64,000 bases of DNA, taken from positions 4,394-68,393 of the forward strand of contig CAZWCA010000009.1 of NCBI GenBank assembly GCA_964632255.1, in the 5' to 3' direction. Below the pieces are notes generated by a model. That model made no database searches. It saw only the letters and a program-made list of their open reading frames with translations, and was not told the DNA's origin. A program made the position numbers and the translations under genes. Source of the DNA: an uncultured Smithella sp. Lineage in GTDB: Bacteria; Desulfobacterota; Syntrophia; Syntrophales; Smithellaceae. Positions 4,962 to 62,444 of the stretch are shown here, in pieces. Each line of letters opens with the position of its first letter. Position 1 is the stretch's first letter.

Positions 4962-4964
4962 TGG

Positions 4965-13206: not shown

Positions 13207-13979
13207 ATAATTTCTTACTCCTTATTCTTCACTATCTCAACTCGTCACACCTCGATCCTGGATAAATAACCCGGCAGCTACTTGATTCTTACAAACTCGA
13301 TGTTAAAGGTTTGTTTCTCCATTACCTGGAAGTAAGTACCTTCAACCGGTCAGTTGCCTTATCGTATTGCAGGTCGTAGGTCGAATCAGGGTAGTTGACA
13401 TCGCGCAGTTTCACAAATGCGGTGGTCCTACCTTCTTTTCGGCTTACTTCCGCACGAAAAAAAGCAGATTTGCCAATCAAACGAGAGTGAACGCAAAAAA
13501 TATCCCAGATGGTATAGTCCCCTGGCAAAGTGCAAGTAATTAATATTAGAGAATAATTTGGAATAAAGTGATGATATTGGTGCATATGGACAAAGAAAAG
13601 CTCTCAACATGTTGCAGATTTGCAAAATATTGAGGATTTGAGTAACGCACTGCACTTCTGACTGCTCAGAAAGAAGCCCCTACAACATGCACCCACCCAA
13701 AATGCCGGGTTATGATTGTTTTCGACTGAAGGCGACCTTGTTGTTTCAGCATTAAGAGGACATCGGCGCGAAAAAAAAGAGCACCAGCGTTAACCATTCA
13801 TGTGGAACCGTGTGATGAAATTTATAATGAGGATTGCCTGAATGGGTGTTTGCTTTAGGAAAAGGGAGCAAAACAGAGTCAAGCACTTTAAATTTTCATT
13901 TGGGAAAATATGCAAATTTTTTATCAGGTTATCTCCTCCTGTAAGCATTATTTATAGATCATTTTTTTAAGGCTGTTCA

Positions 13980-32957: not shown

Positions 32958-34433
32958 TTAAAAATATTTCTTTCTTTTTGAAGATGGCAAAATACCCATC
33001 ATTTCTCTATACTTGGCAACAGTACGCCGGGCGATATTAATTCCCTTCAGTTTCAATAAATCTACTATTTCGCAATCACTATAAGGTTTCTTGGAATCTT
33101 CCTTACCGACCAGGTTTTTAATTTCCTCCTTCACGCTTTTCGATGCAATATTTTCGCCGGATGTTCTCTGGATGGAGCTGCCGAAAAAATACTTCATTTC
33201 GAAGATACCGCGCGGTGTATGCATATATTTATTGGTCACAACACGGCTGATGGTGGACTCGTGCATTTCCACATCGTCCGCCACATCTCTGAGGATTAAA
33301 GGTTTAAGGAAGTTAATGCCTTTGTCAAAAAAATCTTTTTGAAATTTAACGATACTTTCAGCAACTTTGAATATTGTCTTTTGCCGCTGTTGAATGCTCT
33401 TTATCAGCCATGTTGCCGATTGAACTTTATCCCGGACATATTTTTTCCCGTTTTCTTCCTCGTCATGGTCGCCATGACCGCTCATTCCAGCCATTACTTC
33501 CCGGTAAAAATTGCTTATTCGCAGGCGCGGCATGCCGTCGTCATTGAGAATTATTTTATATTCATCTCCTGATTTAACAACGTAAACATCGACAATTATT
33601 GATTGAACTTTTTCCTCGGAGTACATGCTGCCCGGCCGCGGATCCATATTACTGATTAAAAGAACGGCGGTTTCCACTTCCCGTATTGGAACTTTTAACT
33701 TCCGGGAAATATGAAGATAATTTTTCAGTTCCAGGTCTTTGAGATGATCCCTGATTATGACTTCGACAAGCGGATTTTTCGTCCCCAGCAGCCGGGCCTG
33801 AATCAGGAGACATTCCTGTAAATTACGTGCAGCAACCCCTGCCGGATCAAAATCCTGAACTTTTTCCAGAACAGCTTTAACAAACTCTTCAGTAACATTC
33901 TCCAGAACGGCGATTTCCTGAAGTGTTGCGCATAAATAGCCGTTCTGGTCAAGATTGCCGACTATCTGGGCACCGACTCTCATTTCCTCTTCCGTAAAAG
34001 GAGAAAGTTTCATCTGCCACATTAAATGTTCAGTCAGGGATTCGCTTTCTGTGACAATGTTATCCCAGGCGGGCGCTTCGGCATCTTTATAATCATAGGA
34101 AACGCCTACAGGTCCATAATCTTCGAGATAATTGCCCCAATCAAACTCTTCACGCCCGTCTCCCTCGCCGGTAAGTTCTTCCGTGCGTTCAATAGTCTTG
34201 GCTTCTTCACGCTCAATCGATTTTACATCCTCTTCCGCTGTATCATGAATTATTTCCTCATTGTTTTCATCAGCGGTAACTTCTTCAAGGAGCGGATTTT
34301 CTTCCATTTCCTGATTGATCGTCTCAACTAATTCCATCCGGGACAACTGCAGAAGTTTTATCGCCTGCTGCAACTGCGGCGTCATTATTAACTGCTGAGT
34401 AAGTTTAAGATTTTGTTTTAATTCAAAGGCCAT
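32958..34433 (-). CDS. rpoN: RNA polymerase sigma-54 factor
   Basis: 491 aa. N-terminal Q-rich LKLTQQLIMTPQLQQAIKLLQLS, HTH and RpoN box ARRTVAKYRE. Confidence 0.97.
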   Translation of the reverse strand: MAFELKQNLKLTQQLIMTPQLQQAIKLLQLSRMELVETINQEMEENPLLEEVTADENNEEIIHDTAEEDVKSIEREEAKTIERTEELTGEGDGREEFDWGNYLEDYGPVGVSYDYKDAEAPAWDNIVTESESLTEHLMWQMKLSPFTEEEMRVGAQIVGNLDQNGYLCATLQEIAVLENVTEEFVKAVLEKVQDFDPAGVAARNLQECLLIQARLLGTKNPLVEVIIRDHLKDLELKNYLHISRKLKVPIREVETAVLLISNMDPRPGSMYSEEKVQSIIVDVYVVKSGDEYKIILNDDGMPRLRISNFYREVMAGMSGHGDHDEEENGKKYVRDKVQSATWLIKSIQQRQKTIFKVAESIVKFQKDFFDKGINFLKPLILRDVADDVEMHESTISRVVTNKYMHTPRGIFEMKYFFGSSIQRTSGENIASKSVKEEIKNLVGKEDSKKPYSDCEIVDLLKLKGINIARRTVAKYREMMGILPSSKRKKYF

Positions 34434-45361: not shown

Positions 45362-46909
45362 TTATTTAAAAGAGGCAGGCTCGATGCCGTATTTCACGAT
45401 CCGCAATCCCATAACTCTTTCGGTCATGCCCAATACACGAGCTGCCTTGGCCATATTCCCGCGGCAGCGCTTCAATTCTTCCTCGATGATTTCACGTTCA
45501 AAGGCGGATAGTTTTTCTCTGAAAGTTCCCCCGCGCTTTGCACGTACCGTCATGTTGTTTTTTTGCAGACTATGAGGAAGATGGTTGCAACTAATAGTGC
45601 CGTCCGTACTCAACAGAACTGCTCTTTCAATGTAATTCTCCAGTTCTCTAATATTGCCGGGCCAGTTATAATTTACCAGAAGATCGATTGCCGGCCATGA
45701 TATGCCGGATATTTCCTTCCGCATATCTTTTGAGTATTTTTCAATAAAATGGTTGGCCAGTAACGGAATGTCGGTTTTACGTTCTCTAAGAGGCGGCACG
45801 GCAATAGGAAATATATTTAACCGGTAATATAAATCTTCCCTGAACATACCCTGCGCTACCCGTTCTTCAAGTTTACCGTTTGTGGCCGCAATAATTCGAA
45901 CATCCACTTTGATGGTTTCATTATCGCCTACCCGTTCAAATGCTTTCTCCTGGATGACACGCAGTAATTTTGCCTGAAGCGGTAATGTAAGCTCCCCGAT
46001 CTCGTCAAGAAAGATCGTACCCTGGTCGGCTATTTCAAAACGTCCCTTGCGCAAGGCAATAGCGCCGGTAAAGGCTCCTTTCTCATGCCCGAACAACTCG
46101 CTTTCGATAAGAGAATCAGGCAGGGCCGCACAATTGACCGTTACGAAAGGTTTGTCTGCCCGGTTTGACTGATAATGGATGGCATTGGCCACCCGTTCTT
46201 TACCAACGCCGCTTTCACCCAGCACCAGGACGGTAATATTTGTTCCGCATACTTTATCAATCGCAGTATAAATGCCCTGCATAGCCTTGGAGTTGCCGAT
46301 CATATTTCGCGGAGCATGCCGGATCCTTAATTCGTCGTGGAGGCGATTATTTTCCTCACGCACCATTTCCAGCTCTTCTTCAGCTAATTGCCTCAATCGG
46401 ACTGCCTGAGAAATGCTTGAAGCAATAATGGTCAACAGACGGACATCCTCTTCAAATGAAACATTTTCGTTAAACAGGCGGTCAACGGACAGGGCGCCTA
46501 TTATTTCATTACCGATTCTTATAGGAACACAAATGAAGGCAATTTCGTCCTTATCCAATGTTCTTGAACCTGTTTTGTTCAGGAAAAAGGGATCATGAGA
46601 AATCCTCGGGACAATGGCCGGTTCCCCTGTGTCAATTACCTTACCCGTAATTCCCTCACCCAGACGATATCGCCCCTTCATCAATTCCTCAGGAAGTAAA
46701 CCGTACGCCTCATCAATAAAAATTTCACCGCTGTTGCGATTCAGAATCGTGAGTGTGCCCCGGAGCATATCCATATGCTCGGCCATCATCCGCAGAATCG
46801 GTTTCAATGCCGTTTTCAGATCCAGATTTTCACTTAAATTCCGGCTGATTTCGAAAAGGAGTGTCAATTCTTTTATGGCCCGTAAGGCCTTGTCTTCCGG
46901 TGTAGCCAT
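45362..46909 (-). CDS. nifA: NifA-type sigma54-dependent transcriptional activator (GAF - AAA+ - Fis HTH)
   Basis: 515 aa. GAF domain, GESGVGKE Walker A, intact [23 protein letters not shown]-terminal [29 protein letters not shown]. Confidence 0.85.
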
Positions 46910-46962: not shown

Positions 46963-48360
46963 TCAGTCTTCTTCATGATCCCTGATTTTTAACCGCTGCA
47001 TACTTGGAGGTAAATGATTATGATGAATAACGCCGTCAGTACTTAAAACTACCGCCCTTTCTATATACCCTTTCAATTCCTGTACATTGCCCGGCCACTT
47101 ATAATTAATGAGGGAATCCATCGCCGAATGAGAGATGCTGTTTACTTCTTTGCCGGCTTCCTTTGCATATTGCTCAATAAAGTAGTTAGCCAGTAAAACA
47201 ATATCCTGTCTGCGTTCCCTCAGAGGAGGAACGATGATAGGAAATACATTAAGGTGGTAATACAGATCTTCTCTGAACTTTCCTTTCCGCACCTGACTTT
47301 CCAAGTCGCTGCTTGTTGCCGCAATGATGCGTACATTTGTGCCGCACTGTCTGTTTCCCCCGCATCTTTCAAATTTCCCCTCTTTAAGGACGTGTAACAA
47401 TTTTGCCTGGAGTAATGGTGTAAGAGCTGCAATCTCGTCAAGAAACAAAGTTCCTCCCCTTGCAATATCGAGTCCGCCTCTTCGCCGGCCGCCAGCGCCA
47501 ATGATAGTGCTTTCTTCATGCCCGAACAATTCACTTTCGATGATCGGTTCCGGAAGGTTGCTGCATACAACCTTTATGAAAGCCTGATTTGACCGGCTTG
47601 ACTGGCTATGTATCGCTCTGGCTATTCTTTCTTTCCCGACGCCGCCTTCACCAATAATGAGGACATTTGAATTTGAATCGCTTACTTTATAGATATAGTG
47701 ACAAATATTTTGTATAGCTTTGGAATCGCCGATAATTGCATCCGTTCTATTCCGCGCGTATAGTTCACTTTTAAGATTTTTTATTTCTTCGAGAAGTCTC
47801 TCATGTTCCTCTTCCGCCGCTTCCCGCAATTGAACCGCCTGAGCAATAATTAATGCGATTGACTTTAAAATTCTAATGTCTTCCTCAATGGGGACGGAAT
47901 TATCGAATATCCGGTCAACGGCGAGCGCACCTGTAATCTTTCCGCGGGTTTTTATGGGCACGCAGATACATGCCGCTTCATCCTTAACAACAAGACGTCT
48001 GGATATGTTTTTATCAAGGGAAAGCAGCCTTTCCGATACGGTCAGCATAACTGCGGGATGCATTGTATAAATAACCTTGCTTACTATTCCCCGGTCTGCC
48101 TGATACCCCATCTGCATGCCGATGCCATCAGAAAAGCCGTGTCTTTCCTCGATAATGATATCGTGTGAACTCTTTTTCAAGAGTATTATTGTACCGCGTT
48201 TCATCTCCGTGTACTCTGCGATAATAGGCAATATCAACTTGGATATTTTCCTGAGATCGATGGTCTCATTCAGTCTGCTGCTTATATTGAAAAGCAGTGC
48301 AAGCTCTTTTACTTGACATGAAGCCATCGTCTCTGCATTTGTGTTATAAATTTTACTCAT
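46963..48360 (-). CDS. NifA-like GAF-AAA+ protein lacking the DNA-binding HTH and with a degenerate GAFTGA loop
   Basis: 465 aa, colinear with nifA through GAF and AAA+ (GEGGVGKE, RIIAATS, WPGNVQEL). It reads [17 protein letters not shown] where GAFTGA should be, and ends ...LPPSMQRLKIRDHEED with no HTH. Confidence 0.85.
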   Translation of the reverse strand: MSKIYNTNAETMASCQVKELALLFNISSRLNETIDLRKISKLILPIIAEYTEMKRGTIILLKKSSHDIIIEERHGFSDGIGMQMGYQADRGIVSKVIYTMHPAVMLTVSERLLSLDKNISRRLVVKDEAACICVPIKTRGKITGALAVDRIFDNSVPIEEDIRILKSIALIIAQAVQLREAAEEEHERLLEEIKNLKSELYARNRTDAIIGDSKAIQNICHYIYKVSDSNSNVLIIGEGGVGKERIARAIHSQSSRSNQAFIKVVCSNLPEPIIESELFGHEESTIIGAGGRRRGGLDIARGGTLFLDEIAALTPLLQAKLLHVLKEGKFERCGGNRQCGTNVRIIAATSSDLESQVRKGKFREDLYYHLNVFPIIVPPLRERRQDIVLLANYFIEQYAKEAGKEVNSISHSAMDSLINYKWPGNVQELKGYIERAVVLSTDGVIHHNHLPPSMQRLKIRDHEED

Positions 48361-48568
48361 ACGCCAATCTCAAACCAGCAATCAGTAGATTCAGCGGCCG
48401 AAAATATTTCTATTTAAATATAAACCATGGCAAAACTTTTCTAATCTTTGCTGATGCACATTAGTAGTGTACCATTATTTATTATGAATTTTTTTCTCCA
48501 AATTATTAAAATTATAAATTCCTTCATCCTGTACATGAGCTGTTTCAACCCTGTCGTAAATAATTAGG

Positions 48569-48583
48569 GCAAACTGCGTGCCA
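48569..48583 (-). promoter_or_regulatory. sigma54 -24/-12 promoter upstream of the two nifA-like genes
   Basis: Minus-strand reading is TGGCACGCAGTTTGC, a perfect match to TGGCACG-N4-TTGC, ~210 nt upstream of the 48360 start. Confidence 0.75.
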
Positions 48584-48881
48584 TTGTTGTAACTATTTGT
48601 AAATACGTGGTTTATATCGGAATTGAACTGCTAATAGTCGGCCCTATACGACACATATTTGTATCATGCCACCGTATGGTAGGAATTAATTGCAGGTTTT
48701 TATGGCGGTAACGTTAATTGGAGTATTTCTTCAACATAACCGTCTTTCTCTCCCATGAAAAAAAGAGGGGTCGCGTCTAAAGGAGCTAAGGAGACGTAGT
48801 TGATTCATGATTCCTGAGAAGCAGCGCCTTTCTGTAACGATCACATTTAATACCGTACGTAATTCCGGGTAGAGAAGAGAA

Positions 48882-50243
48882 CTATTGTCTGTAATAGCGA
48901 TCTCTCATGATCTTCCGGTGCATGCCAAACTTCTTGGCAAGTAAGGTATTACTAATGTCGTCCAGTAATTTCAACGAACCATTATAACCGGTATAAACAA
49001 GCCGTTGTCCGCCAAAACGATCATTTATCGGAAAACCGATTCGGACAGGGGGTATCCCGTACTTTTCCGTAATCTGTTTGCCGGTGGAATTGCCGATGAT
49101 TAAATTCACCTCTTTTTCCAGGGCATGCTTCTCAATGGTCTCAAAATCCGTATCATCCAGGATCAGTGCTTGGGCACAAGAACAAGCAAGCTTACCACTA
49201 AGTTCCATTTTTAAGAGGGCACTCTGGGAACCGGTGCTGATAATAGAAGGTTCGATTCCGTTCTCAAAACATATACAGCTGATGGAATATACGATGTCGG
49301 GTTCGCCATATATCAAGGCTTTAATGCCGCCATTCAATTTGTGGGCATCAATCATTCCATCCACCAACCGGCCGCGATCCTCAATTATCTTATTAGGGAT
49401 TGATTTTTGCGAAAGATCGGAGAGGGTCACCATAAAACGGTCTGTATTGTCGATCCCGATGGGAATGGGGCACCGGTAACAGGGAACACCATATTCGTGT
49501 TCCAGGAATTGCCCCGGTGAGATGTTATCCGGAATGGTTACCCCAATTTCCAATGATGCTCTGGATGTTGCCATCATCTGGATATCCCTGTATCGAGTTC
49601 CTCCGACAGGGATACGGTTGAATTCACGAGAGAAGGGAGCATCAAAAGTATAGGAGATATCCGGCAGCATAATATAATTGATTCCGAAGGATTCCAGAAT
49701 TTCTTTGATATTCCTTACATCACCCGGACATACGTGCGGCATAATGACATTTACCCTCTGGTGTCGAATTCCAGGTTTCGTAGTTTGCCGGACAATGTCA
49801 AGCAAGGTTGTGTAATATCCCTCGTGCAGGGTTCCGCCATAGCCCGGAGTATTTGTTGTTATAATGTGGATTCCTGTTGTATCGTTTTCTGATTCGAACT
49901 CCTTTATGATCCTATTGAGGTCTTCGCCAATGGTCTCAGCCAGACACGTTGTGGAAACTCCAATAATTTGGGGATTATAAATCCGGATGAGATTTTTTAA
50001 ACCTTTCTTCAGGTTATTTGCACCACCGTGGATGGTGGCATTCTCATGCAGAGACGATGATGCAATATCGAACGGCTCTGAATAATGCGTAGTGATATGC
50101 GTGCGTATATATGCGCTGCACCCTTGTGAACCGTGGAGCATCATCATGCTGTTCTCTATGCCGTGGAAAGCGATGGCGGCGCCCATAGGCATGCACATTT
50201 TGCACGGATTGATATTCAAGTTCTCGAAATTTCTTTTTTTCAA
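48882..50243 (-). CDS. nifN: nitrogenase FeMo-cofactor biosynthesis scaffold NifN
   Basis: NINPCKMCMPMGAAIAFHGIENSMMMLHGSQGCSAYIR...STTCLAETIGEDL (component-1 fold, beta-like). Probable TTG start at 50243 overlapping the nifE stop (TTGA), 8 nt after GGAGGTG. The track ORF extends to a GTG at 50285. Confidence 0.85.
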   Translation of the reverse strand: MKKRNFENLNINPCKMCMPMGAAIAFHGIENSMMMLHGSQGCSAYIRTHITTHYSEPFDIASSSLHENATIHGGANNLKKGLKNLIRIYNPQIIGVSTTCLAETIGEDLNRIIKEFESENDTTGIHIITTNTPGYGGTLHEGYYTTLLDIVRQTTKPGIRHQRVNVIMPHVCPGDVRNIKEILESFGINYIMLPDISYTFDAPFSREFNRIPVGGTRYRDIQMMATSRASLEIGVTIPDNISPGQFLEHEYGVPCYRCPIPIGIDNTDRFMVTLSDLSQKSIPNKIIEDRGRLVDGMIDAHKLNGGIKALIYGEPDIVYSISCICFENGIEPSIISTGSQSALLKMELSGKLACSCAQALILDDTDFETIEKHALEKEVNLIIGNSTGKQITEKYGIPPVRIGFPINDRFGGQRLVYTGYNGSLKLLDDISNTLLAKKFGMHRKIMRDRYYRQ

Positions 50244-51673
50244 CTTGTCAACACCTCCTTCATTTCCGGAAATCCAATCGTGCACAGCTCATGCGATGAT
50301 ACGACATCTTCCCTTGTCCATTTCCAAACAGGACTGTTGGAGGTGAGATGCATTTCTTTGGCGAAATTAATCATCCCTTCGTAGGTTGTAAGAGGATGTT
50401 TGCGGTCGTGGTTAAAATCCACAAATGGAATTCCCATCTTTAAAGAGAGAGCCCGTTCCTTGACATTGCCGATGAGAATGTCAGGCTTCATTTTTTTCAT
50501 ATACTTCTCGAGTTCCGCAGGCGAGGTATCGTTCAAGATGACAGCGCCTTCTGTTGCAAATCCATGTATTATCCGGTAGTCCTCAGCATTGCCATGCTGG
50601 GTTCCGATGATAATGGTTTTAATATCAAATTCCTTGAGAAGCCTGATAATCGCGATAGCTTTGTATGTGCCGCCGACACAAACAGCAGCCCTCTTGCCTC
50701 TCAATTTCATTTTGTAACTCTCAATAACCGGTTTGACTGCTTTTTCCTCCTCATCCGCCAGGCTTAACGACTTTTCAACCAGTTCGCTGCCGCCGATTAT
50801 TCCGGAAATCTGTATCAGGGAATTTCTGATATCTTCAAAACCGATAAACCGGACCTTTATGGAGGGGATATTGAACTTTTCCTCCATCTGTTTAGAGAGG
50901 TATGCCATGGAGCCAGAACATTCCACGATGTTGAGGCTTGCGCTGGGTGCCTTCATTATCTGATCGTACGTGGAATCACCCGTTATCTTTGAAATGACTT
51001 TGATGCCGATCCTCCGGAGGTATTCCTCAATGATCCAGATTTCACCGCCATGGTTGTAGTCCCCAAGGATGTTTACGCCGGGCTTTTTTTCCTGTCTTTC
51101 GTCACCCATGAGTTCCAGCAGGGCACTGCATGCAAGCCTGTACCCCAGAGGCTTCGCCCCGGTAAATCCGCTGGATTTCACCGGTATGATGCGGACTATG
51201 TGCTTGTGCTCCATTCGCTTGCATACTGATTCGATGTCATCACCGATCACGCCGACAACGCAGGTCGCGTATACGAAAATGAGACGGGGTCTTGGCTTGT
51301 AGTTTTCCATGATTTCTTCGATCGCTGCGAGCAGCTTTCTTTCTCCGCCAAATATGATGTCCTGCTCCCGGAGGTCAGTGGAAAAGCTGTTCCTGTATAA
51401 ATCGGCATTACTGCTCAAACTTCCCCTTAAATCCCACGTATAGCTCGCACACCCGATAGGACCGTGAACAAGATGGACCGCGTCCGTGATGGGATTCAAT
51501 ACAACTCTTGCGCCACAGTAAACACAGGCCCGCTGACTTATGGAACCGGCGATACTTTCCTTTTCGCATCTGATTTGTCCTCCGCTGCAACCGGAAGATT
51601 TAAACATTATATGAGCCTTTCGTTCTTCAAGGACATCCTTGAAATCCGTAAAGGCATTCTTTTCTCCTTTCAT
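50240..51673 (-). CDS. nifE: nitrogenase FeMo-cofactor biosynthesis scaffold NifE
   Basis: Start at MKGEKN (ATG 51673, GGAGGT 5 nt upstream). RACVYCGARVVLNPITDAVHLVHGPIGCASYTWDLRG and YATCVVGVIGDDI resemble NifE/NifD-fold cluster sites. Confidence 0.88.
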   Translation of the reverse strand: MKGEKNAFTDFKDVLEERKAHIMFKSSGCSGGQIRCEKESIAGSISQRACVYCGARVVLNPITDAVHLVHGPIGCASYTWDLRGSLSSNADLYRNSFSTDLREQDIIFGGERKLLAAIEEIMENYKPRPRLIFVYATCVVGVIGDDIESVCKRMEHKHIVRIIPVKSSGFTGAKPLGYRLACSALLELMGDERQEKKPGVNILGDYNHGGEIWIIEEYLRRIGIKVISKITGDSTYDQIMKAPSASLNIVECSGSMAYLSKQMEEKFNIPSIKVRFIGFEDIRNSLIQISGIIGGSELVEKSLSLADEEEKAVKPVIESYKMKLRGKRAAVCVGGTYKAIAIIRLLKEFDIKTIIIGTQHGNAEDYRIIHGFATEGAVILNDTSPAELEKYMKKMKPDILIGNVKERALSLKMGIPFVDFNHDRKHPLTTYEGMINFAKEMHLTSNSPVWKWTREDVVSSHELCTIGFPEMKEVLTS

Positions 51674-51710
51674 AATACCTCCATTGCAGCCTGTATAGGG
51701 ACTGAATATT

Positions 51711-52127
51711 TCAATTTGATGGCCCCTCAAACATGAAATCGTGTTTGAGAATACGTTTCAGCCAGAGAGGCTTCTTGCCTTTAAACAGTCCCTGTAGTTT
51801 GAAGATTGCTGCTTCAATCGATTCAACTGCATTCATTTCTATAGGGTACACGCCCGATGCAATCACACGGTCTGCGATGGGACCGCCGATGGCTGAAACA
51901 AAGATGACATCGCTTTCCCTTATGGCGTCAATTCTCTCGTCAATGGAAAAAGGCTTTCTATGCACAGGCCTTATTGCGAGATCATCGGAGCCGCCTTGCG
52001 GGGAGAAGCTTGCTGCATGATTGAACTTACAAGTTTCTTCAGTAATATCGTAGAACATAAAGTAACGGCATAAGGCAAAATGCCCGTTCAGGTTCTCTCT
52101 ATCATTGGTCGCAAATACAACTCTCAT
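51711..52127 (-). CDS. nifX: NifX/NafY-family FeMo-cofactor-binding protein
   Basis: 138 aa. MRVVFATNDRENLNGHFALCRYFMFYDI..., IGGPIADRVIASGVYPIEM and KPLWLKRI parallel the NifX pattern (..AFAS.D...V..HFG....F.IY., GV.PIK., P.WL.K). Confidence 0.8.
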   Translation of the reverse strand: MRVVFATNDRENLNGHFALCRYFMFYDITEETCKFNHAASFSPQGGSDDLAIRPVHRKPFSIDERIDAIRESDVIFVSAIGGPIADRVIASGVYPIEMNAVESIEAAIFKLQGLFKGKKPLWLKRILKHDFMFEGPSN

Positions 52128-52191
52128 TTACGCTCTCCTTCTTCATAATTAGATTTTTTATACTCTCATATGTTGGTTTACGTATTTTCGC

Positions 52192-53553
52192 CTACATGAT
52201 GAGCTCAAGATTTTCATCGAGAGCATCCCTATCGGACCTGTCCAGAAGCGTATTGCCGATCATCTCAAGAAGACGCATGAGTCCCCTGTAACCTACAGTG
52301 GGCAGATAGGAATGCACTCCACGATCCATAATAGGGAAGCCAAACCGGACAAAAGGAATATCTTCAGCACGAGCTATATATTTGCCATACGTATTCCCAA
52401 TCAAGAGGTCCACTGGATCATTCTTGATCCATTGATGCAGCGTGAACAAGTCGCCGGCACTTTTCACCTTACCATCTATTTGCGCTTCCCGGAGCATGGA
52501 ACTCACCTTTTCTTCGAATGCAATTCCCGGGGTGCCGGTCAAAACAAATTGAGGAATCATTCCCAGTTCAAGCAGAAACGAAGCGAGCGCCATTACCGTA
52601 TCCGGGTCTCCAAATACTGCTACTTTTTTGCCGAAGTAATGCTGGTGAAGATCAGCCATTACGTCGATTACCTGACCGCGTTCCTCTTCCAGTTCATCCG
52701 GGATACCTTTCCCTGTTAAGTTTGAAACCGTCATAAGGAAGTCATCCATGGCATTTATCCCAATAGGGATCATGAGTGTTAAAGGAGGAACCCCGCACTT
52801 GTTTTGTAATTCATGAGCACCCCGCTCTGACGAGAAGCTTCCTAATGCTATGGTTGCCCTGGAGTTGCCCGCATCGATTATATCATTCACTTTTGTTCCG
52901 CCCTTGGGAAAGATGTGGTAATTGCCGGTCAATGGCGCATCCATAACACCGCTCGTATCGGGAAACATGATGAAGTCCACGTCCATAATCTGCAGTATCC
53001 GCTTGATTTCCCTCATATCGCCGGGGTTAACGAACCCTGGAATGATATTTATCTTCCCATTGGGTATCCCGTTATTCTCGCTGAGGTATCTGACCATTCC
53101 AACAATCATATTGGAAAATCCGATAATGTGAGATCCCACATAGCTTGGGGTGTTCGCATGAATGATATATTTTCCTTCAGGCTTAGCGGACTTGCTGATA
53201 ATTGTTGGTATGTCATCTCCTATAGTTTCCGATAGACATGTCGTGTGAATAGCGATAATGTCCGGATTATATATGGAGAATACATTGTTGATCGCGGTTG
53301 TCAGATTGGCCATGCCGCCGAACACGCATGCCCCCTCTGTGAATGAACTGGTGGAAGCCTCGGCCGGCTCACGGAAATGTCTGTTCAAATGGCCCCTAAA
53401 GTACATCTGACATCCCTGTGATCCATGGCTGTGCGGCAGACAACGGTGAATCCCCAAAGCAGCATAGGTAGCTCCCAATGGCTGGCAGGTTTTTGCCGGA
53501 TTGATAACAAGCGCCTTGCGCTCAAAAATTTCTTTAGGTGTATGGTCTAACAT
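52192..53553 (-). CDS. nifK: Mo-nitrogenase MoFe protein beta chain (short N-terminus, anaerobe type)
   Basis: 453 aa. P-cluster cysteine contexts TCQPLGA, HGSQGCQMY, TTCLSETIGDD. The ATG abuts the nifD stop (TAAATG) with GGGAGG upstream. Confidence 0.92.
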   Translation of the reverse strand: MLDHTPKEIFERKALVINPAKTCQPLGATYAALGIHRCLPHSHGSQGCQMYFRGHLNRHFREPAEASTSSFTEGACVFGGMANLTTAINNVFSIYNPDIIAIHTTCLSETIGDDIPTIISKSAKPEGKYIIHANTPSYVGSHIIGFSNMIVGMVRYLSENNGIPNGKINIIPGFVNPGDMREIKRILQIMDVDFIMFPDTSGVMDAPLTGNYHIFPKGGTKVNDIIDAGNSRATIALGSFSSERGAHELQNKCGVPPLTLMIPIGINAMDDFLMTVSNLTGKGIPDELEEERGQVIDVMADLHQHYFGKKVAVFGDPDTVMALASFLLELGMIPQFVLTGTPGIAFEEKVSSMLREAQIDGKVKSAGDLFTLHQWIKNDPVDLLIGNTYGKYIARAEDIPFVRFGFPIMDRGVHSYLPTVGYRGLMRLLEMIGNTLLDRSDRDALDENLELIM

Positions 53554-55179
53554 TTAAAATACCTCCCTTAAATATGAGCCATGAATAAGAGGCTCTGTCT
53601 TCCACTTGGGTTTAATCATTTTCCAAACCGGTGCAGTCAGCCCCATAGCGATGTCCCGGGCAAAAACCACGGCTCCGTTAAAGCCCGCAAAGGGACCGCT
53701 ATAGTCATAGGAATGGATCTGTTTTGAAAGGGTGCCCATCTTGTGGATGACGTATTTCTCTTTTATACCGGATCCGAAAAGATCCGGATTCAATAGTTTC
53801 ATAAAAGATTCCATCTCATAATGATTTAAATCATCAACGACGACGCTTCCGTCCTTCATAATTTTTATCATTCCTTTGAAATAATTGAGTTCCATTTGCA
53901 TTCTGAGTTCCTCAAACTTTTCCCTCGAAAGCATGAGGCGGTAGAATTTTTCATCCGGTTGCACTGACAGGTTCTCGATGTTTTTATTATCAGCGTTCTC
54001 CTTGATAAAAGGGATGACTTCACGTCCTTCGTAATCGTCGCGATGGGCGAATTCGAAACCAGCCAGGACTGTTTCCATGCCGATCTCTTCAAAAAGTCCT
54101 TGGAAGTGGTTGGCGCGGGAACCACCGACAAAAAGTGCCACAGTCTTCCCTTTGCAGATCTTTTTATATTTCTCTATCTGCGGCTGAATGATCGCCATTT
54201 CGTTTCTGATGAATTCATCAGTTCTGCAGATCAGATCGGGGTCTCCAAAGTAAGAAGCCAAATCATTCAATGCTTGGATCGTACTCCGGATGCCAAGGAA
54301 ATTCACTTTAATCCAGTCTGTTCCGTATTTCTCCCGTAATAACTCTGCATTGTAATTGGTTGATCGATGGCACTGCACCAGATTTAGGTCAGCACTGTGG
54401 GCCTTCCTCAAACGTTCTACGGAACCGTCACCGGACATAATAGAAATGATATCGTACCCTATGGTTCTCAGAATACGTTCTATCTCCCATCCATCGCCAC
54501 CGATGTTGTATTCGCCGAGGATGTTAAGCGAATAATCCTTTTTATCCTTTTTTACAGAAGCCTTAGTTCCTATAATATTTTTAAACAGACCGTTGTTTGC
54601 TATGTGGTGGCCTGCTGATTGACTTACCCCCTTGTAGCCTTCGCAACTATAAGCAATTGTCTGAATTCCGAACTCTTGTTCCGCCCAGCGCGCAACGGAA
54701 TGGATATCATCACCGATCAATCCCACAGGGCATGTTGCGCAGATCATGATGCTTTTGGGTTTGAATATTCGGACGACTTCTTCCACGGCCTGTTTCAACT
54801 TTTTCTCGCCGCCGAATACGATGTCGCTTTCTTGCATGTCTGTAGAAAAGCAATAAGTGAGGAAATTATACTCTTCATCTTTATTCTTTCTCGCTCTGTT
54901 TCTTCTTGTAAGCCAGCTATAATACCCGCAACCGATTGGTCCATGAGTTATGGCGACAGTATCTTTCAGCGGACCGACAACTACCCCTTTGCACCCCGCA
55001 TAACAACAACCACGTTCCGTAATAATCCCCGGGATGGTCCGACAATCAGCCACCATTTCCTGCGGAGCCTCTTCCGAGTTCACCACCAGCAGATGCCCCT
55101 TACGGCTTCTGTGCGTTTTCGGTGAGTATTTTTTTAAGATATTTTCCACATCTGCTTTCATTAATGTTATATTCGCCAT
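53554..55179 (-). CDS. nifD: Mo-nitrogenase MoFe protein alpha chain (anaerobe/group-II-like, ~50-aa insertion)
   Basis: Start at MANITL (AGGAGG 7 nt upstream). ERGCCYAGCKGVVVGPLKDTVAITHGPIGCGYYSW, CPVGLIGDD and GVSQSAGHHIANN are present. So are the FeMoco ligand contexts QCHRSTNY (Cys) and IHSYDYSGPFAGFNG (His). An extra segment sits between DDYEGRE and VVDDL relative to the Azotobacter NifD I remember. Confidence 0.92.
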   Translation of the reverse strand: MANITLMKADVENILKKYSPKTHRSRKGHLLVVNSEEAPQEMVADCRTIPGIITERGCCYAGCKGVVVGPLKDTVAITHGPIGCGYYSWLTRRNRARKNKDEEYNFLTYCFSTDMQESDIVFGGEKKLKQAVEEVVRIFKPKSIMICATCPVGLIGDDIHSVARWAEQEFGIQTIAYSCEGYKGVSQSAGHHIANNGLFKNIIGTKASVKKDKKDYSLNILGEYNIGGDGWEIERILRTIGYDIISIMSGDGSVERLRKAHSADLNLVQCHRSTNYNAELLREKYGTDWIKVNFLGIRSTIQALNDLASYFGDPDLICRTDEFIRNEMAIIQPQIEKYKKICKGKTVALFVGGSRANHFQGLFEEIGMETVLAGFEFAHRDDYEGREVIPFIKENADNKNIENLSVQPDEKFYRLMLSREKFEELRMQMELNYFKGMIKIMKDGSVVVDDLNHYEMESFMKLLNPDLFGSGIKEKYVIHKMGTLSKQIHSYDYSGPFAGFNGAVVFARDIAMGLTAPVWKMIKPKWKTEPLIHGSYLREVF

Positions 55180-55205: not shown

Positions 55206-55946
55206 TCAATAATTATTCCAATGAATGATTTTTCGTTCTGCCATGATCATAATCTTGTTCATTATCAATCCAAGCAACCCCACCAGGATAATAGTTAAAT
55301 ACATTTCAGGAGTTGCATAAGCGGTTTGGGCGTATACAACCCTGCTTCCAAGACCGTATTTCGCGCCCACCAGCATTTCAGTAACAATTCCGACTATGAC
55401 ACCCATGGACAGGGCAACTCTAGTTCCAATGAATATTTGAGGAAGCGCATCGAAGATCACTATCCTGCATAAAACCTGACGCCATGAAGCGCCCATTATC
55501 CTCGCAATTCTCACTCTGGTCTTATTGCCATTGATAACTCCCATCGACGTATTCAGTATAATGATCAACATGCATCCGAAAATAATCACGGCGATTCTCG
55601 ATTCTTCCCCGGTACTAAAAATCAACATGGACAAGGGGTAAACAAGAATAGGCGGGATAGAACGGAAGAAATCCAGCGCTGTTTCGACATATGGACGTAT
55701 CCTGCCGAAATAGCCCAAAAGAATTCCCATCGGAATTCCAGCTGCCAGTGCTGCCAGGACTCCAATAACTACCCTTATGAAGGAATAAACCATGTCCAGG
55801 TAAATACTTTTTTCAGCGAAGAGCCTGATGCCTACATTAAGCGTTTCTTGCGGAGTCGGCAGGAACAACGGATTAACCAGTTGAGTCCAGGATAATCCTT
55901 CCCATAAGAGAACTATTGCCGAAAATGTGATGATGTATTTTTTCAT
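55206..55946 (-). CDS. ABC transporter permease, NitT/TauT (SsuC/TauC-like) family
   Basis: Start taken at MKKYIITF. Six TM segments, and an EAA-like loop ARIMGASWRQVLCRIVIFDALPQIF. Embedded in the nif operon. Confidence 0.85.
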   Translation of the reverse strand: MKKYIITFSAIVLLWEGLSWTQLVNPLFLPTPQETLNVGIRLFAEKSIYLDMVYSFIRVVIGVLAALAAGIPMGILLGYFGRIRPYVETALDFFRSIPPILVYPLSMLIFSTGEESRIAVIIFGCMLIIILNTSMGVINGNKTRVRIARIMGASWRQVLCRIVIFDALPQIFIGTRVALSMGVIVGIVTEMLVGAKYGLGSRVVYAQTAYATPEMYLTIILVGLLGLIMNKIMIMAERKIIHWNNY

Positions 55947-55971
55947 TTTCTGCTCCGCACTATTGTTGCTC

Positions 55972-56796
55972 TCATGAGAAGCGCGCTTCACCTTGGAAAC
56001 AAATCCGATGTTCATGATCGTGGTTAATCCTTTGAAGAACGCGGCTGTTCCACGCGGGATTCGTTTTCTCCAGTATTATCTTGGCCGGTTTATCCGACAG
56101 GAAAATAACCCTGCTGGACAAATAGAACAAATGCTCTATATCATGAGCCACAATCAAAGTAGGGATCTTGATCTCTTCCCGTATTTCCAGAAGTTTATCC
56201 ATGAGCCATTCGCCATTCGAGCAGTCGAGGGCTGAAAATGGTTCGTCCATAAGCATCACATCCGGATCAGAGATTAATCCCCGTATAATTGCTGCATATT
56301 GCTGCTGTCCCCCGCTCAATTGGTATGGATATTTATCAATTGAGAACGGGATTCTTATAAGATTCGTAAGCCAGCATAATTTCTCTGCTATGAGACTCTT
56401 GTTCCATTTTTTTAAGACCAAGGGAAATAGGATATTATCCCTGATTGATAACCAGGGAAAAAGGCTGCTCCGGAAGTCTTGGAAAATATAAGAGATGCTA
56501 TTTTCTCCCGGCTTTTTTCTCCCTATAGTTATGTGCCCGGAATCCGGTTCGATGATGCCGGAAATCATATTGAGCAAAGTAGTTTTTCCACATCCGTTCG
56601 GGCCAAAAATCCCCACAACTTCATCATAGTCCACGGAAAGGCTGAATTCCTCAAAAATCCGTTCTTCCTTGCCGGCAGAAATTCTTGCCTTCTTGCATAT
56701 CTTGTTAATATGAATTCCGTTCACCATCATCCCAGTTCCATTCATTATCAATTGACCAGTGAATTGTTTGAAAAAAACTGAACTCCAAATTTTCAA
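55972..56796 (-). CDS. ABC transporter ATP-binding protein, NitT/TauT (SsuB/TauB-like) family
   Basis: GIFGPNGCGKTT Walker A, LSGGQQQ signature, LMDEPFSALD Walker B. Start uncertain: TTG overlapping the SBP stop at 56796, or internal ATGs at 56745/56730. Confidence 0.88.
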   Translation of the reverse strand: MKIWSSVFFKQFTGQLIMNGTGMMVNGIHINKICKKARISAGKEERIFEEFSLSVDYDEVVGIFGPNGCGKTTLLNMISGIIEPDSGHITIGRKKPGENSISYIFQDFRSSLFPWLSIRDNILFPLVLKKWNKSLIAEKLCWLTNLIRIPFSIDKYPYQLSGGQQQYAAIIRGLISDPDVMLMDEPFSALDCSNGEWLMDKLLEIREEIKIPTLIVAHDIEHLFYLSSRVIFLSDKPAKIILEKTNPAWNSRVLQRINHDHEHRICFQGEARFS

Positions 56797-57758
56797 TTAG
56801 CTCCACGGAAGAGAGCGTTTGAGAGATCAACCTTTTCTTTGATTATCCCCAATTTTTTATGTGAATCACCGATTCTTATCAGTTTAGCGGGTGTGAATTG
56901 CGACGATTTCAAAAACAAGGAATCCGGATACTTATTAACGAAAGACCTTTGCGCTTCGGGAAGGAATTTCCCCATACTTACTTTAGACTCTTGCTGATTG
57001 GCAGTTATGTATTCGATTGCCTCATCAAGGGAGTTAATAATTCGTTGGGCAACAACTGGATTCTTGTTAACAAAATCCTTGGCCATGCAAAAACTCGCAA
57101 AAGGAAATGGAGATCCTAAATATTTTGGAACCAGAGCTTCCTTGAGCAGGAGACGGCCGATACCTTTCTCAATGCATGCTGTAACCGCAGGATCATTTGT
57201 AAACATGGCGTCGACTATGCCTGACTCGAGAGAGGCGGGGGTCATGGCCGGCGCTACCTGTTGTATAATAACTTCGTCTAATTTTACGTTATTTTTTTGA
57301 AGGATGAGTTCAAGCCAGACTTTATACGCAAATGTTGGAAGAATTCCTATTCTTTTACCTTTAAGGTCGGAGATTTTTTTTATCGATGAATCCTTTTTTA
57401 CGACGAACATGCTCACAGGATGTTTGTTATCTTCCAGCATCAGAGTGGCATAATATAATTCTTTTTTGCTTCTGAGCTGAGCACTCAAGATAATAGGAAA
57501 GGCTGCGTAACCGGCAACATCAAGTTTCCCGCTGCAAAGAGCATCGATTAGCGGTTGAGCTGTATCAAACTTTACCAGATCGACATCAATACCGTTCTTT
57601 TTGAATATCCCCTTTTCTTGCGCTACAAAAATAGGAAGGCTTATCCGTAAAGTGCTACATCCTATCCTCACCCTCTCGTTGCCGGCGGCCGGATTACCGG
57701 CGCACAAAAATATTACGAACACAATGACCCAGATCAATCTTTCGGAATTCTTATTCAT
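56793..57758 (-). CDS. ABC transporter periplasmic substrate-binding protein, NMT1/SsuA-like
   Basis: 321 aa. Signal peptide, then the SsuA/NMT1-type pattern (LPIFVAQEKGIFKKNGIDVDLVKF...DVAGY...KGKRIGI...). Confidence 0.82.
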   Translation of the reverse strand: MNKNSERLIWVIVFVIFLCAGNPAAGNERVRIGCSTLRISLPIFVAQEKGIFKKNGIDVDLVKFDTAQPLIDALCSGKLDVAGYAAFPIILSAQLRSKKELYYATLMLEDNKHPVSMFVVKKDSSIKKISDLKGKRIGILPTFAYKVWLELILQKNNVKLDEVIIQQVAPAMTPASLESGIVDAMFTNDPAVTACIEKGIGRLLLKEALVPKYLGSPFPFASFCMAKDFVNKNPVVAQRIINSLDEAIEYITANQQESKVSMGKFLPEAQRSFVNKYPDSLFLKSSQFTPAKLIRIGDSHKKLGIIKEKVDLSNALFRGAN

Positions 57759-58517: not shown

Positions 58518-58797
58518 TTACCTCCTCACGTTTCGTTGTTCAGTTTCTAATCCCCTAATCCAATATCCTATTTGATCAGAGCAGAGCTTCCATCTCTTCC
58601 GTAGCCAGAGGTTTGGGGATGACGAATACCTGGTTTTCATCAATGACCTCAGCAATTTTGCGGTATTCATCAGCATGGTTAGGCGAGTGTCGCAGGCGAT
58701 AACGGATTTGCGGTTGATTCCGGTGCGCTGCAATCGTATTTTGTGTAGTAGTTGATTTCCCGATTCCGCCTTTGCCATAATAGCAATCTTCTTTCAA
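58518..58797 (-). pseudogene. nifH: nifH remnant: frameshifted and internally deleted dinitrogenase reductase gene
   Basis: About 280 nt where ~830 nt is expected. One frame reads ..[19 protein letters not shown].., then ..[32 protein letters not shown] (NifH C-terminus). The neighbouring frame holds KKIAI before the P-loop and ..[16 protein letters not shown] ([11 protein letters not shown] lacking PKADS). The switch I/II regions and the 4Fe-4S cysteines are absent. Confidence 0.85.
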
Positions 58798-58820
58798 TTT
58801 TATGTTTTTTTTAGCATAGG

Positions 58821-58836
58821 ATCAAAATACATGCCA
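58821..58836 (-). promoter_or_regulatory. sigma54-like promoter upstream of the nifH remnant, with non-consensus -12
   Basis: Minus-strand reading is TGGCATGTATTTTGAT. The -24 element and spacing fit, but the -12 reads TTGA instead of TTGC. ~25 nt upstream of the remnant. Confidence 0.4.
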
Positions 58837-59612: not shown

Positions 59613-59957
59613 ATGAAAAGAATTGAAGCAATTATCCAGTTGGATAAAATTGAAGGCGTGTCCAATGCATTGAAAAAAATCGGTCATAATGGACTGGCGA
59701 TTACCGAAATCAAAGGCTATGGATATCAGGAAAATCTGCTGCGCCGGTTTCGTGGTGTTTCCTTTTCCAATAAGGTAGATCGCATCAACAAGGCAAAGGT
59801 TGAACTTACTGTAAATGAAAATGAAATTGATGAAATTGTCGACGCAATCCGCAAATCAGCATATGCCGGCAGCTTCATGAATGAAAAAATATTTATTCAT
59901 TCTGTAGATGATGCGTTGCGGATTTGCTTCGGAAATAAAGAAGTAAATGCCCTATAG
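59613..59957 (+). CDS. divergent P-II-like (GlnB-fold) protein
   Basis: 114 aa. MKRIEAIIQLDKIEGVSNALKKIGHNGLAITEIKGYGYQ...KAKVELTV follows the P-II beta-alpha-beta pattern. The T-loop and the GDGKIFV motif are degenerate (MNEKIFIHSV). AAGGAG SD. Confidence 0.7.
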   Translation: MKRIEAIIQLDKIEGVSNALKKIGHNGLAITEIKGYGYQENLLRRFRGVSFSNKVDRINKAKVELTVNENEIDEIVDAIRKSAYAGSFMNEKIFIHSVDDALRICFGNKEVNAL

Positions 59958-59974: not shown

Positions 59975-60172
59975 ATGAAAGATAATACATCTGTTATTGG
60001 AGAAAACATGTTGGAGCGTTGCGTAGCCGGTTTTGAGAAAACAGTCATCGTCCATGCCCTGACCAGAACAAGAGGCAATCAATCAGCCGCAGCCCAGTTG
60101 CTGGGAACAACGAAACGTGTTTTGACATATAAAGTTCATAAATATAAAATCGACTGCGAACAATACAAATAG
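59975..60172 (+). CDS. stand-alone Fis-type HTH protein (equivalent to a NifA/NtrC C-terminal DNA-binding domain)
   Basis: 65 aa. FEKTVIVHALTRTRGNQSAAAQLLGTTKRVLTYKVHKYKI matches the ..E...I..AL....GN...AA..LG..R.TL..K..KY.I pattern. GGAGGG SD. Confidence 0.75.
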   Translation: MKDNTSVIGENMLERCVAGFEKTVIVHALTRTRGNQSAAAQLLGTTKRVLTYKVHKYKIDCEQYK

Positions 60173-60546: not shown

Positions 60547-60591
60547 GCCGCTGCATTTTGTTTTGGGCGCAAAGTGCAGCGGCATTTTTTT
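60547..60591 (+). terminator. rho-independent terminator
   Basis: GCCGCTGCA-(19-nt loop)-TGCAGCGGC followed by ATTTTTTT. Sits between the PII-like/HTH operon and the anfH promoter. Confidence 0.7.
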
Positions 60592-60665: not shown

Positions 60666-60681
60666 TGTACATTCAAGAACA
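60666..60681. promoter_or_regulatory. candidate NifA-type UAS (TGT-N10-ACA)
   Basis: TGTACATTCAAGAACA, ~150 nt upstream of the anfH -24 element. The pattern is short, so a chance occurrence is plausible. Confidence 0.35.
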
Positions 60682-60829
60682 ATCTCCGTTGAAATGCACG
60701 TACATGAACGCACGAGAAATTAAAAATAGCTGTGCTTAAGCGTCATCGTGCTAAATGCCTTGTGTTTTCATCATAACTCCTATGATTAACCATATAAATA
60801 CTTTACCTTTTTATAGATGCCTCAATCCC

Positions 60830-60845
60830 TGGCACATATTCTGCT
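60830..60845 (+). promoter_or_regulatory. sigma54 -24/-12 promoter of the anf operon
   Basis: TGGCACATATTCTGCT (TGGCAC-N5-CTGCT, GG-N10-GC exact), ~60 nt upstream of the anfH ATG. Confidence 0.75.
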
Positions 60846-61751: not shown

Positions 61752-62069
61752 ATGAAAATGATCAAGGCAATCATTCGTCCCGAAGCAGCGGATACAGTGG
61801 CGGACAGCCTGGCTGAAGCCGGATTCTTCTCAATGACGAAAATCAATGCGTTCGGCCGTGGAAAGCAAAAAGGGATTACCGTTGAAAACATGCATTACGA
61901 CGAGTTACCGAAGACGATGATCATGATGGTCGTCGAGGACAAGGACGTCGAAGAGGTGCTGAGACTCATAAAGTACAAGGCTTACACCGGAAACTTCGGC
62001 GACGGGAAAGTATTTGTAACGCCGGTTGACTATGCGTTCACCGTCCGCACCGGCGAAAAGACCTTATAG
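61752..62069 (+). CDS. nifI1: NifI1-type P-II protein of the anf operon
   Basis: 105 aa. MKMIKAIIRPE...FGRGKQKG...GNFGDGKVFVTPV. AAGGAG SD. Between the H and D genes. Confidence 0.9.
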   Translation: MKMIKAIIRPEAADTVADSLAEAGFFSMTKINAFGRGKQKGITVENMHYDELPKTMIMMVVEDKDVEEVLRLIKYKAYTGNFGDGKVFVTPVDYAFTVRTGEKTL

Positions 62070-62078: not shown

Positions 62079-62444
62079 ATGAAGGAAATCACGGCTATCA
62101 TCCGTCCCAAAAAAATCACCGCGACGAAAACCTCCCTGGAGAACCTCGGATTCCCCGGCATGACCGCGATACAGGTCCTCGGCAGGGGTCACCAGAGAGG
62201 AATCGCCGGAGAATTGAACTACGAAGTCAGTCCCAACATCATAGGAAAGTCCTGCGGCATGAAATACATTCCCAAACGCATGATCAAGATCGTCGTACGC
62301 GACGAGGACGTCGACAAAGTCGTCCGTACGATTGTCGATGTAAACCAGACGGCGCAGATTGGCGACGGGAAAATCTTCGTGAGTCCCGTTTTCGACGCAC
62401 TCAGAGTGCGCACGGACGAGACCGGCGACAACGCCCTGGCATAG
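62079..62444 (+). CDS. nifI2: NifI2-type P-II protein of the anf operon
   Basis: 121 aa. MKEITAIIRPKK...LGRGHQRG + extended T-loop ...YIPKRMIKIVV...IGDGKIFVSPV. GGAGGA SD. Confidence 0.9.
   Translation: MKEITAIIRPKKITATKTSLENLGFPGMTAIQVLGRGHQRGIAGELNYEVSPNIIGKSCGMKYIPKRMIKIVVRDEDVDKVVRTIVDVNQTAQIGDGKIFVSPVFDALRVRTDETGDNALA

Follow-up and report, generated by a model that had tools for sequence, protein, structure and literature searches.

A degraded nifH at the head of an otherwise intact molybdenum nitrogenase operon in an uncultured Smithella sp.

Introduction

Can a molybdenum (Mo) nitrogenase operon stay in use when its own nifH gene is lost? The question is raised by a stretch of 64,000 nucleotides (nt) from an uncultured Smithella sp. 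(GenBank assembly GCA_964632255.1, contig CAZWCA010000009.1, positions 4,394 to 68,393 of the forward strand), which is the window analysed here. On its minus strand the window carries a Mo nitrogenase operon headed by a nifH pseudogene of 243 nt (window positions 58797–58555). At a distance of 2.1 kb from this relic, and divergently transcribed, is anfH, the Fe-protein gene of an Fe-only nitrogenase cluster.

nifH serves as the universal marker of diazotrophs and is regarded as indispensable for the Mo nitrogenase, where the Fe protein takes part in electron delivery and in formation of the P-cluster and the iron-molybdenum cofactor (FeMo-co). An operon from which nifH has long been absent and in which nifDKEN are intact is a natural test of the interchangeability of Fe proteins in vivo, and it bears on minimal gene sets for nitrogen-fixation engineering and on the reading of nifH-based surveys. 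The interest of this locus is that a natural, apparently long-standing Mo nitrogenase operon without nifH is situated beside an anfH. The relic is a genuine pseudogene, fixed and of fair age. The operon behind it probably still functions and would receive its Fe protein in trans.

The nifH pseudogene

The relic contains a 73 amino acid (aa) open reading frame (ORF) that starts at a TTG codon (58797–58576). NifH family membership was judged by NCBIfam TIGR01287 and Pfam PF00142, for which a full-length protein of about 275 aa scores above the curated cut-off. The 73-aa sequence matches TIGR01287 in two stretches (E-value = 3.3e-13), profile positions 4–26 and a C-terminal stretch, and its 49.6 bits are below the level of a full-length NifH (cut-off 394.35). 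With an intact NifH as tblastn query, only residues 1–24 and 227–267 are found at the relic. Both searches bear out the preliminary description, which had stated from the sequence alone that the P-loop region and the C-terminus of an Fe protein survive. At the nt level (blastn), the 5′ segment is approximately 77–84% identical to the nifH 5′ ends of many loci, and positions 58732–58560 align with the 3′ portion of the gene from about 45 loci. The relic had been placed at 58518–58797; the 5′ limit stands and the 3′ limit is here trimmed to 58555.

The codon register was set from the nifH genes of seven intact relatives, each 825 nt long, as is nifH in almost all intact relatives. Read against this register, the lesions begin ahead of the coding sequence. 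The GGAG of the ribosome-binding site is gone and a run of A is found in its place, and the start codon is TTG where the relatives have ATG. An additional A directly follows the start, and then comes the sequence KKIAI. The loss of one T in ATT-TAT (58784–58774) puts KKIAI and YGKGG in different frames, as the preliminary description had proposed. The codons of the Walker A P-loop GKGGIGKS (58776–58753) are unblemished and form part of a 15-residue stretch (58779–58735).

After the P-loop, 581 nt are missing, corresponding to codons ~23–216. This deletion is out of frame, and with it both switch regions (I and II) and the two 4Fe-4S cysteine ligands are lost; the earlier estimate of a loss of about 0.55 kb with the same content was about right. 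The deletion ends show a GCAGC microhomology, at V22-A23-A24 (GTT GCA GC) upstream and at V216-Q217-R218 (GT. CAG CG) downstream. From these ends the deletion looks like the product of replication slippage or illegitimate recombination.

The 3′ segment starts with a 14-residue stretch that aligns without gaps to VQRAEINRKTVIDFD (codons 216–230) with 9/15 residues identical. A loss of one nt at 58691–58682 follows, and then a 32-residue C-terminal stretch. An insertion of two nt (TG) creates a TGA at 58578–58576, which ends the 73-aa ORF. After the TGA come the residues IK and a nonsense change of TAC to TAG, and two nt are lost ahead of the old stop codon (58557–58555). Thus the relic has no single open frame; native codons lie in alternating frames and are interrupted by premature TGA and TAG codons.

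These lesions outnumber those listed previously; what had been said of the P-loop, of the C-terminus and of the frameshift in ATT-TAT holds. The segment ACD-TRL had been taken as a remnant of the GCD sequence. This was an error, as the segment represents the C-terminal INRKTVIDFD region, and TRL is the variable segment before QADEYR read out of frame. No trace of the GCDPKADS region is left in the register-corrected alignment of the relic. In blastn alignments with two loci (L062 and L070) the 5′ match was extended into GCD...TRL, but the extension added gaps and no score beyond the P-loop, and the gap-free C-terminal alignment was preferred.

The closest relative found is locus L098 (Joint Genome Institute (JGI) Ga0373875_000046), whose NifD, NifK and NifI1 are 86%, 90% and 85% identical to those of the window. 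L098 is collinear with window positions 58526–48889 (73.6% nt identity), and its nifH is 75.7% identical to the 3′ segment of the relic over 115 nt. The L098 gene order is nifA, nifH (274 aa), nifI1, nifI2, three ATP-binding cassette (ABC) transporter genes, nifDKXEN, nifB and, further on, nifV. Both loci share nifH, nifI1, nifI2, the SsuA-like ABC genes and the order nifDKXEN. However, in L098 alone nifH is complete, with 274 aa, a ribosome-binding site and an ATG start, nifI1 and nifI2 are separate genes, a nifA is situated upstream, and nifB and nifV come after nifN. The window instead shows the nifH relic, nifI1 joined to nifI2 and nifA genes that follow nifN; nifB and nifV were found nowhere in the 64 kb. 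The nif locus is therefore rearranged relative to L098, with nifA after nifN (nifN-nifA intergenic region, 48361–48881) and not upstream of nifH.

In locus L003 (81%), too, nifI1 is directly preceded by an intact nifH. Among 80 metagenome loci found with a NifI query, essentially every locus with sequence upstream of nifI1 has nifH there, and where the contig extends far enough this nifH is full length, nearly always 273–276 aa. As nifH is intact at the orthologous position in L098 and L003, the relic is a unitary pseudogene. As a side observation, a related deltaproteobacterial metagenome-assembled genome (MAG; L002, positions 3744–6146) has a transposase gene directly upstream of nifD, in place of nifH-nifI. 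The L002 matches to nifD and nifK are split over several frames, which represents either real decay or long-read insertion/deletion (indel) errors.

How long ago the gene was lost was approached with Tajima-type relative-rate counts, with L098 as sister, six different outgroups and 239 aligned nt. At codon positions 1 and 2 there are 18–20 changes unique to the relic vs 3–5 unique to L098. At codon position 3 the counts are 14–22 vs 9–16, which is much less skewed. Substitutions in the relic also affect residues that do not vary among the aligned NifH sequences, e.g. AE to TG and F to C. Its excess divergence at constrained codon positions amounts to approximately 6–10%, and five small indels are present besides. 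Thus the relic has been free of constraint at the protein level over a period that corresponds to roughly 6–10% change at normally constrained sites. A comparison of the nif genes with L003 gave no ratio of nonsynonymous to synonymous substitution rates (dN/dS), as synonymous sites are saturated (proportion of synonymous differences, pS, 0.78–0.92). Because saturation is found against every available relative, dN/dS for the period after the loss is not obtainable, and the relative-rate counts were used instead.

With a 78-aa chimeric query representing the repaired relic, the only matches were four short H proteins with internal deletions, a result that does not bear on the existence of an intact allele. 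H genes of this kind are found in three loci, P0004/L092 (GCA_032774505.1), P0003/L093 (GCA_054861485.1) and P0001/L095. They resemble the relic in that the P-loop and C-terminus are kept and the middle is gone, and they also head nitrogenase or nitrogenase-like clusters. Unlike the relic, they carry in-frame deletions, are called as 104–137-aa proteins and belong to V/Fe-type or nitrogenase-like clusters; they are known from the database sequence as it stands. The genes behind the short H of L092 (I1, I2, D, G, K, E and N) look intact. In L093 the D and E/N-type genes behind the 104-aa H are fragmented and have the look of an operon in genuine decay. Internal deletions may be a recurrent event in H genes.

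The operon behind the pseudogene

Behind the relic are ten genes in about 9.6 kb (the fused nifI1-nifI2, three ABC-transporter genes and nifDKXEN; Table 1). They contain no frameshifts and no internal stops, and all are full length compared with their orthologs, in keeping with the preliminary description. The genes nifD to nifN (48882..55179) are tightly packed and intact. If this region were as unconstrained as the relic (five indels per ~243 nt), about 200 indels and tens of stops would be expected. Because the relic has drifted while approximately 9.6 kb of genes and their promoter are free of lesions, the rest of the operon appears to have been under purifying selection long after the death of nifH.

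The catalytic genes also retain their family signatures. NifD gives 561.7 bits with TIGR01862 (cut-off 486) and 630.7 bits with TIGR01282, just below the cut-off of 653.55. NifK gives 448.6 bits with TIGR01286 (cut-off 427.3). Of the cofactor assembly genes, nifE gives 556.7 bits (cut-off 505) and nifN 311.6 bits, which is below its cut-off of 326.8. NifD aligns end to end with the MoFe protein alpha subunit of Clostridium pasteurianum (4WES/1MIO; 651 bits). Its motifs GC.YAG, HGPIGC, CPVGLIGDDI, GHHIAN, QCHRS and HSYDY, which hold the P-cluster and FeMo-co ligands, are all kept. By family and motifs the MoFe protein is of the C. pasteurianum type, with the long alpha-subunit insertion. Where NifD and NifK of the window carry changes of their own, these are dispersed and for the most part conservative.

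The promoter ahead of the relic is of the sigma-54 type and retains the clade-typical form TGGCAY-N5-TTGAT/C. The same form is found ahead of intact nifH genes in relatives at −50 to −134, e.g. TGGCACGTTTATTGAT in L024, TGGCATTCTTTTTGAT in L030 and TGGCATTGTTCTTGAT in L033. A TGT-N10-ACA enhancer upstream of the nif promoter was found neither in the window nor in the relatives with intact nifH. Because the latter also do without it, the missing enhancer is no sign of promoter decay. The window also contains rpoN (32958–34433), whose product shares a cluster, at 90% identity or above, with a protein of a Smithella sp. MAG.

The preliminary description had listed nifI as a single intact gene and had not mentioned the three ABC-transporter genes before nifD. 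The coding sequence is indeed intact, but it is an in-frame fusion of nifI1 and nifI2. A stop separates nifI1 and nifI2 in the eight related loci that were checked directly; in L098 the two frames overlap, and most other loci give two separate matches. Within the fusion, nifI2 retains its own GGAGGG ribosome-binding site and ATG. The joined gene may be functional, or it may represent a second lesion of a mild kind. An exact look-up did not find the fused protein in the records, where the called start differs.

SsuA/TauA-type (NMT1) ABC genes follow nifI2 both in the window (55206–57758) and in L098 (7411–9961). In L003 they are found between nifI1 and nifI2 (6967–9505) and in L002 after nifN (12845–15376). 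An ABC transporter of this type thus accompanies this NifDK clade at three different places in the operon.

Source of the Fe protein

The MoFe protein depends on the Fe protein in electron transfer, in maturation of the P-cluster and in the synthesis of FeMo-co (PMC9571451). Because of this requirement, in catalysis as well as in P-cluster and FeMo-co maturation, an operon that is still in use without nifH must receive its Fe protein in trans. The gene content favors this answer to the question raised above. In the proposed sequence of events, an out-of-frame deletion of 581 nt between the GCAGC microhomologies would have inactivated nifH, and the 243-nt remainder would then have drifted. The relic would now be a mere leader behind the retained sigma-54 promoter, from which nifI1I2, the ABC genes and nifDKXEN would still be transcribed. 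The MoFe protein and the cofactor scaffold would still be used, and the downstream genes would have been kept by purifying selection since the loss of nifH. The Fe protein would arrive from another gene, either an unlinked nifH or the adjacent anfH.

Several points weigh against this reading. The case for continued function is made from the absence of lesions, and the search for Fe-protein genes covers the 64-kb window of one MAG contig. The unique amino acid changes across the operon number 251 in the window lineage vs 138 in L098 (~1.8x). This excess could mean partial relaxation of constraint, but equally it could follow from a lower guanine plus cytosine (GC) content, which for the operon is 45% in the window vs 48.6% in L098; it is read here as a lineage or composition effect, with at most mild relaxation. 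In addition, the joining of nifI1 to nifI2 may count as a mild lesion.

Within the supply in trans, the preliminary description had suggested two alternatives, dependence on AnfH or a nifH elsewhere in the genome. Jointly they are supported by the present results, and the window cannot separate the two. An unlinked nifH copy is slightly the more likely supplier, at somewhat under even chances. Anaerobes commonly hold multiple nifH copies. Because nifB and nifV follow nifN in L098 but not in the window, other nif loci probably exist in this genome, and the absence of these two genes from the window favors an unlinked nifH, as does the mixed literature on AnfH with NifDK (PMC9571451). The related draft genome of Ca. 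Smithella cisternae carries nifHDKEB (PMC5606693). If the partner is a second nifH, the locus would be an ordinary case of redundancy followed by loss.

The alternative, which is possible but appears rather unlikely, is that AnfH acts as the Fe protein of the MoFe protein in both catalysis and maturation, forming a natural hybrid nitrogenase, and that nifH thereby became dispensable. A tblastn search of the 64 kb with intact Fe-protein queries found anfH as the only intact Fe-protein gene, and otherwise the two fragments of the relic; its description as the sole intact Fe-protein gene in the window is thus upheld. The window combines a catalytic cluster without a functional H gene of its own and another H gene. 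That gene is intact, adjacent and divergent, and it has its own sigma-54 promoter and an enhancer-like site (Table 1).

Known systems give AnfH a precedent of sorts. To the extent that it is summarised in PMC4284476, the Anabaena variabilis exchange between NifH1 and VnfH (Pratte et al. 2006) is a similar case of a cluster without its own functional H being served from elsewhere in vivo, which speaks for AnfH. In the same summary, the A. variabilis NifH and VnfH are both intact genes and their exchange was demonstrated genetically, whereas here the supplier would be AnfH or an unseen nifH. NifH and VnfH are approximately 90% alike in Azotobacter vinelandii (PMC9571451), while the AnfH of the window is ~66% identical to orthologous NifH. 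Crosses of Fe and MoFe proteins of A. vinelandii in vitro are also comparable in that one Fe protein may serve the catalytic component of another isozyme (PMC9571451; PMC10803253). For AnfH with NifDK, however, the in vitro results are contradictory (PMC9571451; PMC10803253). Some reports give all three A. vinelandii Fe proteins comparable activity with NifDK, but others describe poor function of AnfH (PMC9571451). In the reverse direction, the Fe nitrogenase reduced N2 with AnfH only and not with the other two reductases (PMC9571451; PMC10803253).

The AnfH sequence itself is canonical (550 bits vs A. vinelandii AnfH, 7QQA). It has K69, basic like Arg69 of Rhodobacter capsulatus AnfH, where NifH has Asp (PMC10803253). 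AnfH displays no sign of adaptation to NifDK. Service to NifDK would also need expression of anfH when Mo is available. anf operons are normally repressed by Mo, and a role for AnfH here would need rewired regulation. MoFe proteins of the C. pasteurianum type are generally the least permissive in heterologous crosses, which would be a further point against AnfH.

The anf cluster may, moreover, be a recent or variable neighbor. AnfH genes of at least 90% identity sit behind anfA, in a different context, in other genomes. The GC content climbs from ~0.38 to 0.50–0.55 at the anf cluster. Logan contigs of five sequencing runs all end at 60564 or start at 60559, with a 6-nt overlap (TGTTTT). This break falls within the loop of a hairpin that resembles a terminator, GCCGCTGCA-N19-TGCAGCGGC followed by T7 (window 60547–60590); repeats that would explain the breaks at 60559–60564 were looked for and none were found. 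In the two runs in which both sides were assembled (SRR9674389 and SRR9860464), differences from the window are 0.09–0.17% on the anf side vs 0.01–0.09% on the nif side. In SRR9674389 the anf contig is about 10x more different than the nif-side contig, with small counts, but for SRR9860464 the difference is the same on both sides. Taken together, these features suggest acquisition or relocation of the anf cluster. With every k-mer assembly breaking at this junction, the linkage may be recent or polymorphic, which counts against AnfH; the acquisition or relocation may have come before or after the loss of nifH.

AnfH is a candidate, by analogy, for support of MoFe catalysis and maturation, the literature being mixed (PMC9571451). 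If AnfH is the partner, the locus would settle the contradictory in vitro data. The source would then be a Smithella-like anaerobe that has permanently lost nifH and uses one reductase, from a horizontally acquired anf cluster, for two isozymes, an arrangement maintained by selection; this we regard as doubtful. A natural organism that lacks nifH and yet uses NifDK was not found described in the searchable literature. Either way, a pseudogene with probable complementation by a paralog is an event of an already known kind, and no new mechanism is shown.

Operon decay and assembly artefact

A different explanation is plain decay, in which the Mo system became dispensable after acquisition of anf, nifH was hit first and the rest is to follow. 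In its favor, the head gene of the operon is inactive, nifI1 has merged with nifI2, the locus lacks the nifB and nifV of L098, and the window branch carries the excess of amino acid changes noted above. In the relative L002 a transposase insertion has cost the operon nifH and nifI, and the nifDK frames are broken. But the relic has accumulated at least five indels, a nonsense change and ~6–10% excess change while the 9.6 kb downstream show no disabling lesion, where equal neutrality predicts the roughly 200 indels and tens of stops given above. The promoter motif is conserved and the cluster-ligand motifs are intact. Clusters in actual decay have another appearance, with split D and E/N-type genes in L093 and, unless sequencing errors are the cause, nifDK broken into several frames in L002. 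Decay is thus improbable, and the suggestion in the preliminary description of an early stage of decay is disfavored by the contrast of a drifted relic with lesion-free downstream genes and a kept promoter.

The preliminary description had also asked for a check on assembly collapse. Logan contigs are k-mer assemblies, here from sequencing runs other than that of the window. Those of SRR9878568 (L004/L096) and SRR36158023 (L097, covering window positions 59278–48744) run across the relic without interruption and agree with the window throughout it. A contig of SRR9674389 (L001) begins within the relic at 58683 and is identical to the window from there onward; its start is 2–3 nt downstream of the 1-nt deletion site in the relic, which would fit a polymorphism there in this run. 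That a full-length nifH is really present and the relic is an assembly or binning artefact, i.e. a collapse or a nifH-anfH chimera, can be dismissed as extremely improbable: the source is a MAG contig and the start of L001 beside the deletion site could reflect polymorphism, but two independent short-read assemblies from other runs carry the identical relic, neither frameshifts nor a lost ribosome-binding site nor altered invariant residues would result from a collapse, and the relic is closest to orthologous nifH, with the window anfH, present in the same blastn database, absent from the best 60 alignments listed.

Features of the window

Coordinates of the features are given in Table 1. Downstream of anfD, which runs to the window end, an overlapping Logan contig (L006) continues with anfG, anfK and anfO, and the cluster is thus that of an Fe-only nitrogenase.

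Table 1. Positions of the nif and anf features in the window, and of short H genes in other loci.
Feature	Position	Strand	Basis or remark
sigma-54-type promoter TGGCAT-N5-TTGAT	58821..58836	-	39 nt upstream of the relic TTG
Former nifH ribosome-binding region	58798..58812	-	AAAGGAG in relatives, AAAAAAAAC in the window; alignments
nifH pseudogene, 5′ segment	58727..58797	-	codons 1 to ~23; register-corrected alignments
581-nt deletion junction	58726..58731	-	5′-segment alignments stop at 58727–58730; 3′-segment alignments begin at 58732
nifH pseudogene, 3′ segment	58555..58731	-	codons ~217–274; register-corrected alignments
nifI1-nifI2 in-frame fusion, PII-like, 244 aa	57779..58513	-	ORF and family matches
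SsuA/TauA-like binding protein (ABC)	56793–57758	-	profile match
ABC ATPase	55972–56727	-	profile match
ABC permease	55206–56015	-	profile match
nifD	53554–55179	-	NCBIfam
nifK	52192–53553	-	NCBIfam
nifX	51711–52127	-	NCBIfam
nifE	50240–51673	-	NCBIfam
nifN	48882–50243	-	NCBIfam
nifA-type sigma-54 activator, 465 aa, without HTH_8	46963–48360	-	domain search
nifA-type sigma-54 activator, 515 aa, complete, tandem	45362–46909	-	domain search
PII-family gene	59613–59957	+	between the nif and anf promoters
Stand-alone HTH_8 ORF, 65 aa	59975–60172	+	after the PII gene, between the nif and anf promoters
anfH control region	60666..60845	+	enhancer-like TGT-N10-ACA palindrome 60666–60681; sigma-54 promoter TGGCAC-N5-CTGCT 60830–60845
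anfH, intact, 275 aa	60906–61733	+	464 bits vs cut-off 394
anfI1	61752–62069	+	
anfI2	62079–62444	+	
anfD	62457 to window end (64000)	+	TIGR01861, 1074 bits vs cut-off 873.8
Internally deleted H genes	L092 10001–10408; L093 557–871; L095 1560–1952		104–135 aa

The 465-aa activator and the 65-aa HTH_8 ORF, 11.6 kb apart on opposite strands, map to complementary parts of NifA. An inversion of ~13 kb may have split an anfA gene into these two pieces, or the match may be a coincidence; it is not used in the argument. Counter to a split, the HTH_8 ORF has a good ribosome-binding site of its own right after the PII gene. A perfect 15-nt inverted repeat, CACGTTTCGTTGTTC / GAACAACGAAACGTG, is found at 58527–58541 and 60105–60119, where ~0.02 pairs are expected by chance in 6 kb. 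One arm is situated just upstream of the nifI1 ribosome-binding site and the other within the HTH_8 ORF.

Elsewhere the window has the gene content of ordinary chromosomal DNA, with ligA, rpoN, coaBC and amtB-glnK among others. Two large paralogous hybrid sensor kinases, 9225–12383 (1052 aa) and 13980–17123 (1047 aa), are encoded on one strand with 1.6 kb between them, and both display a receiver, multiple PAS domains, HisKA and HATPase.

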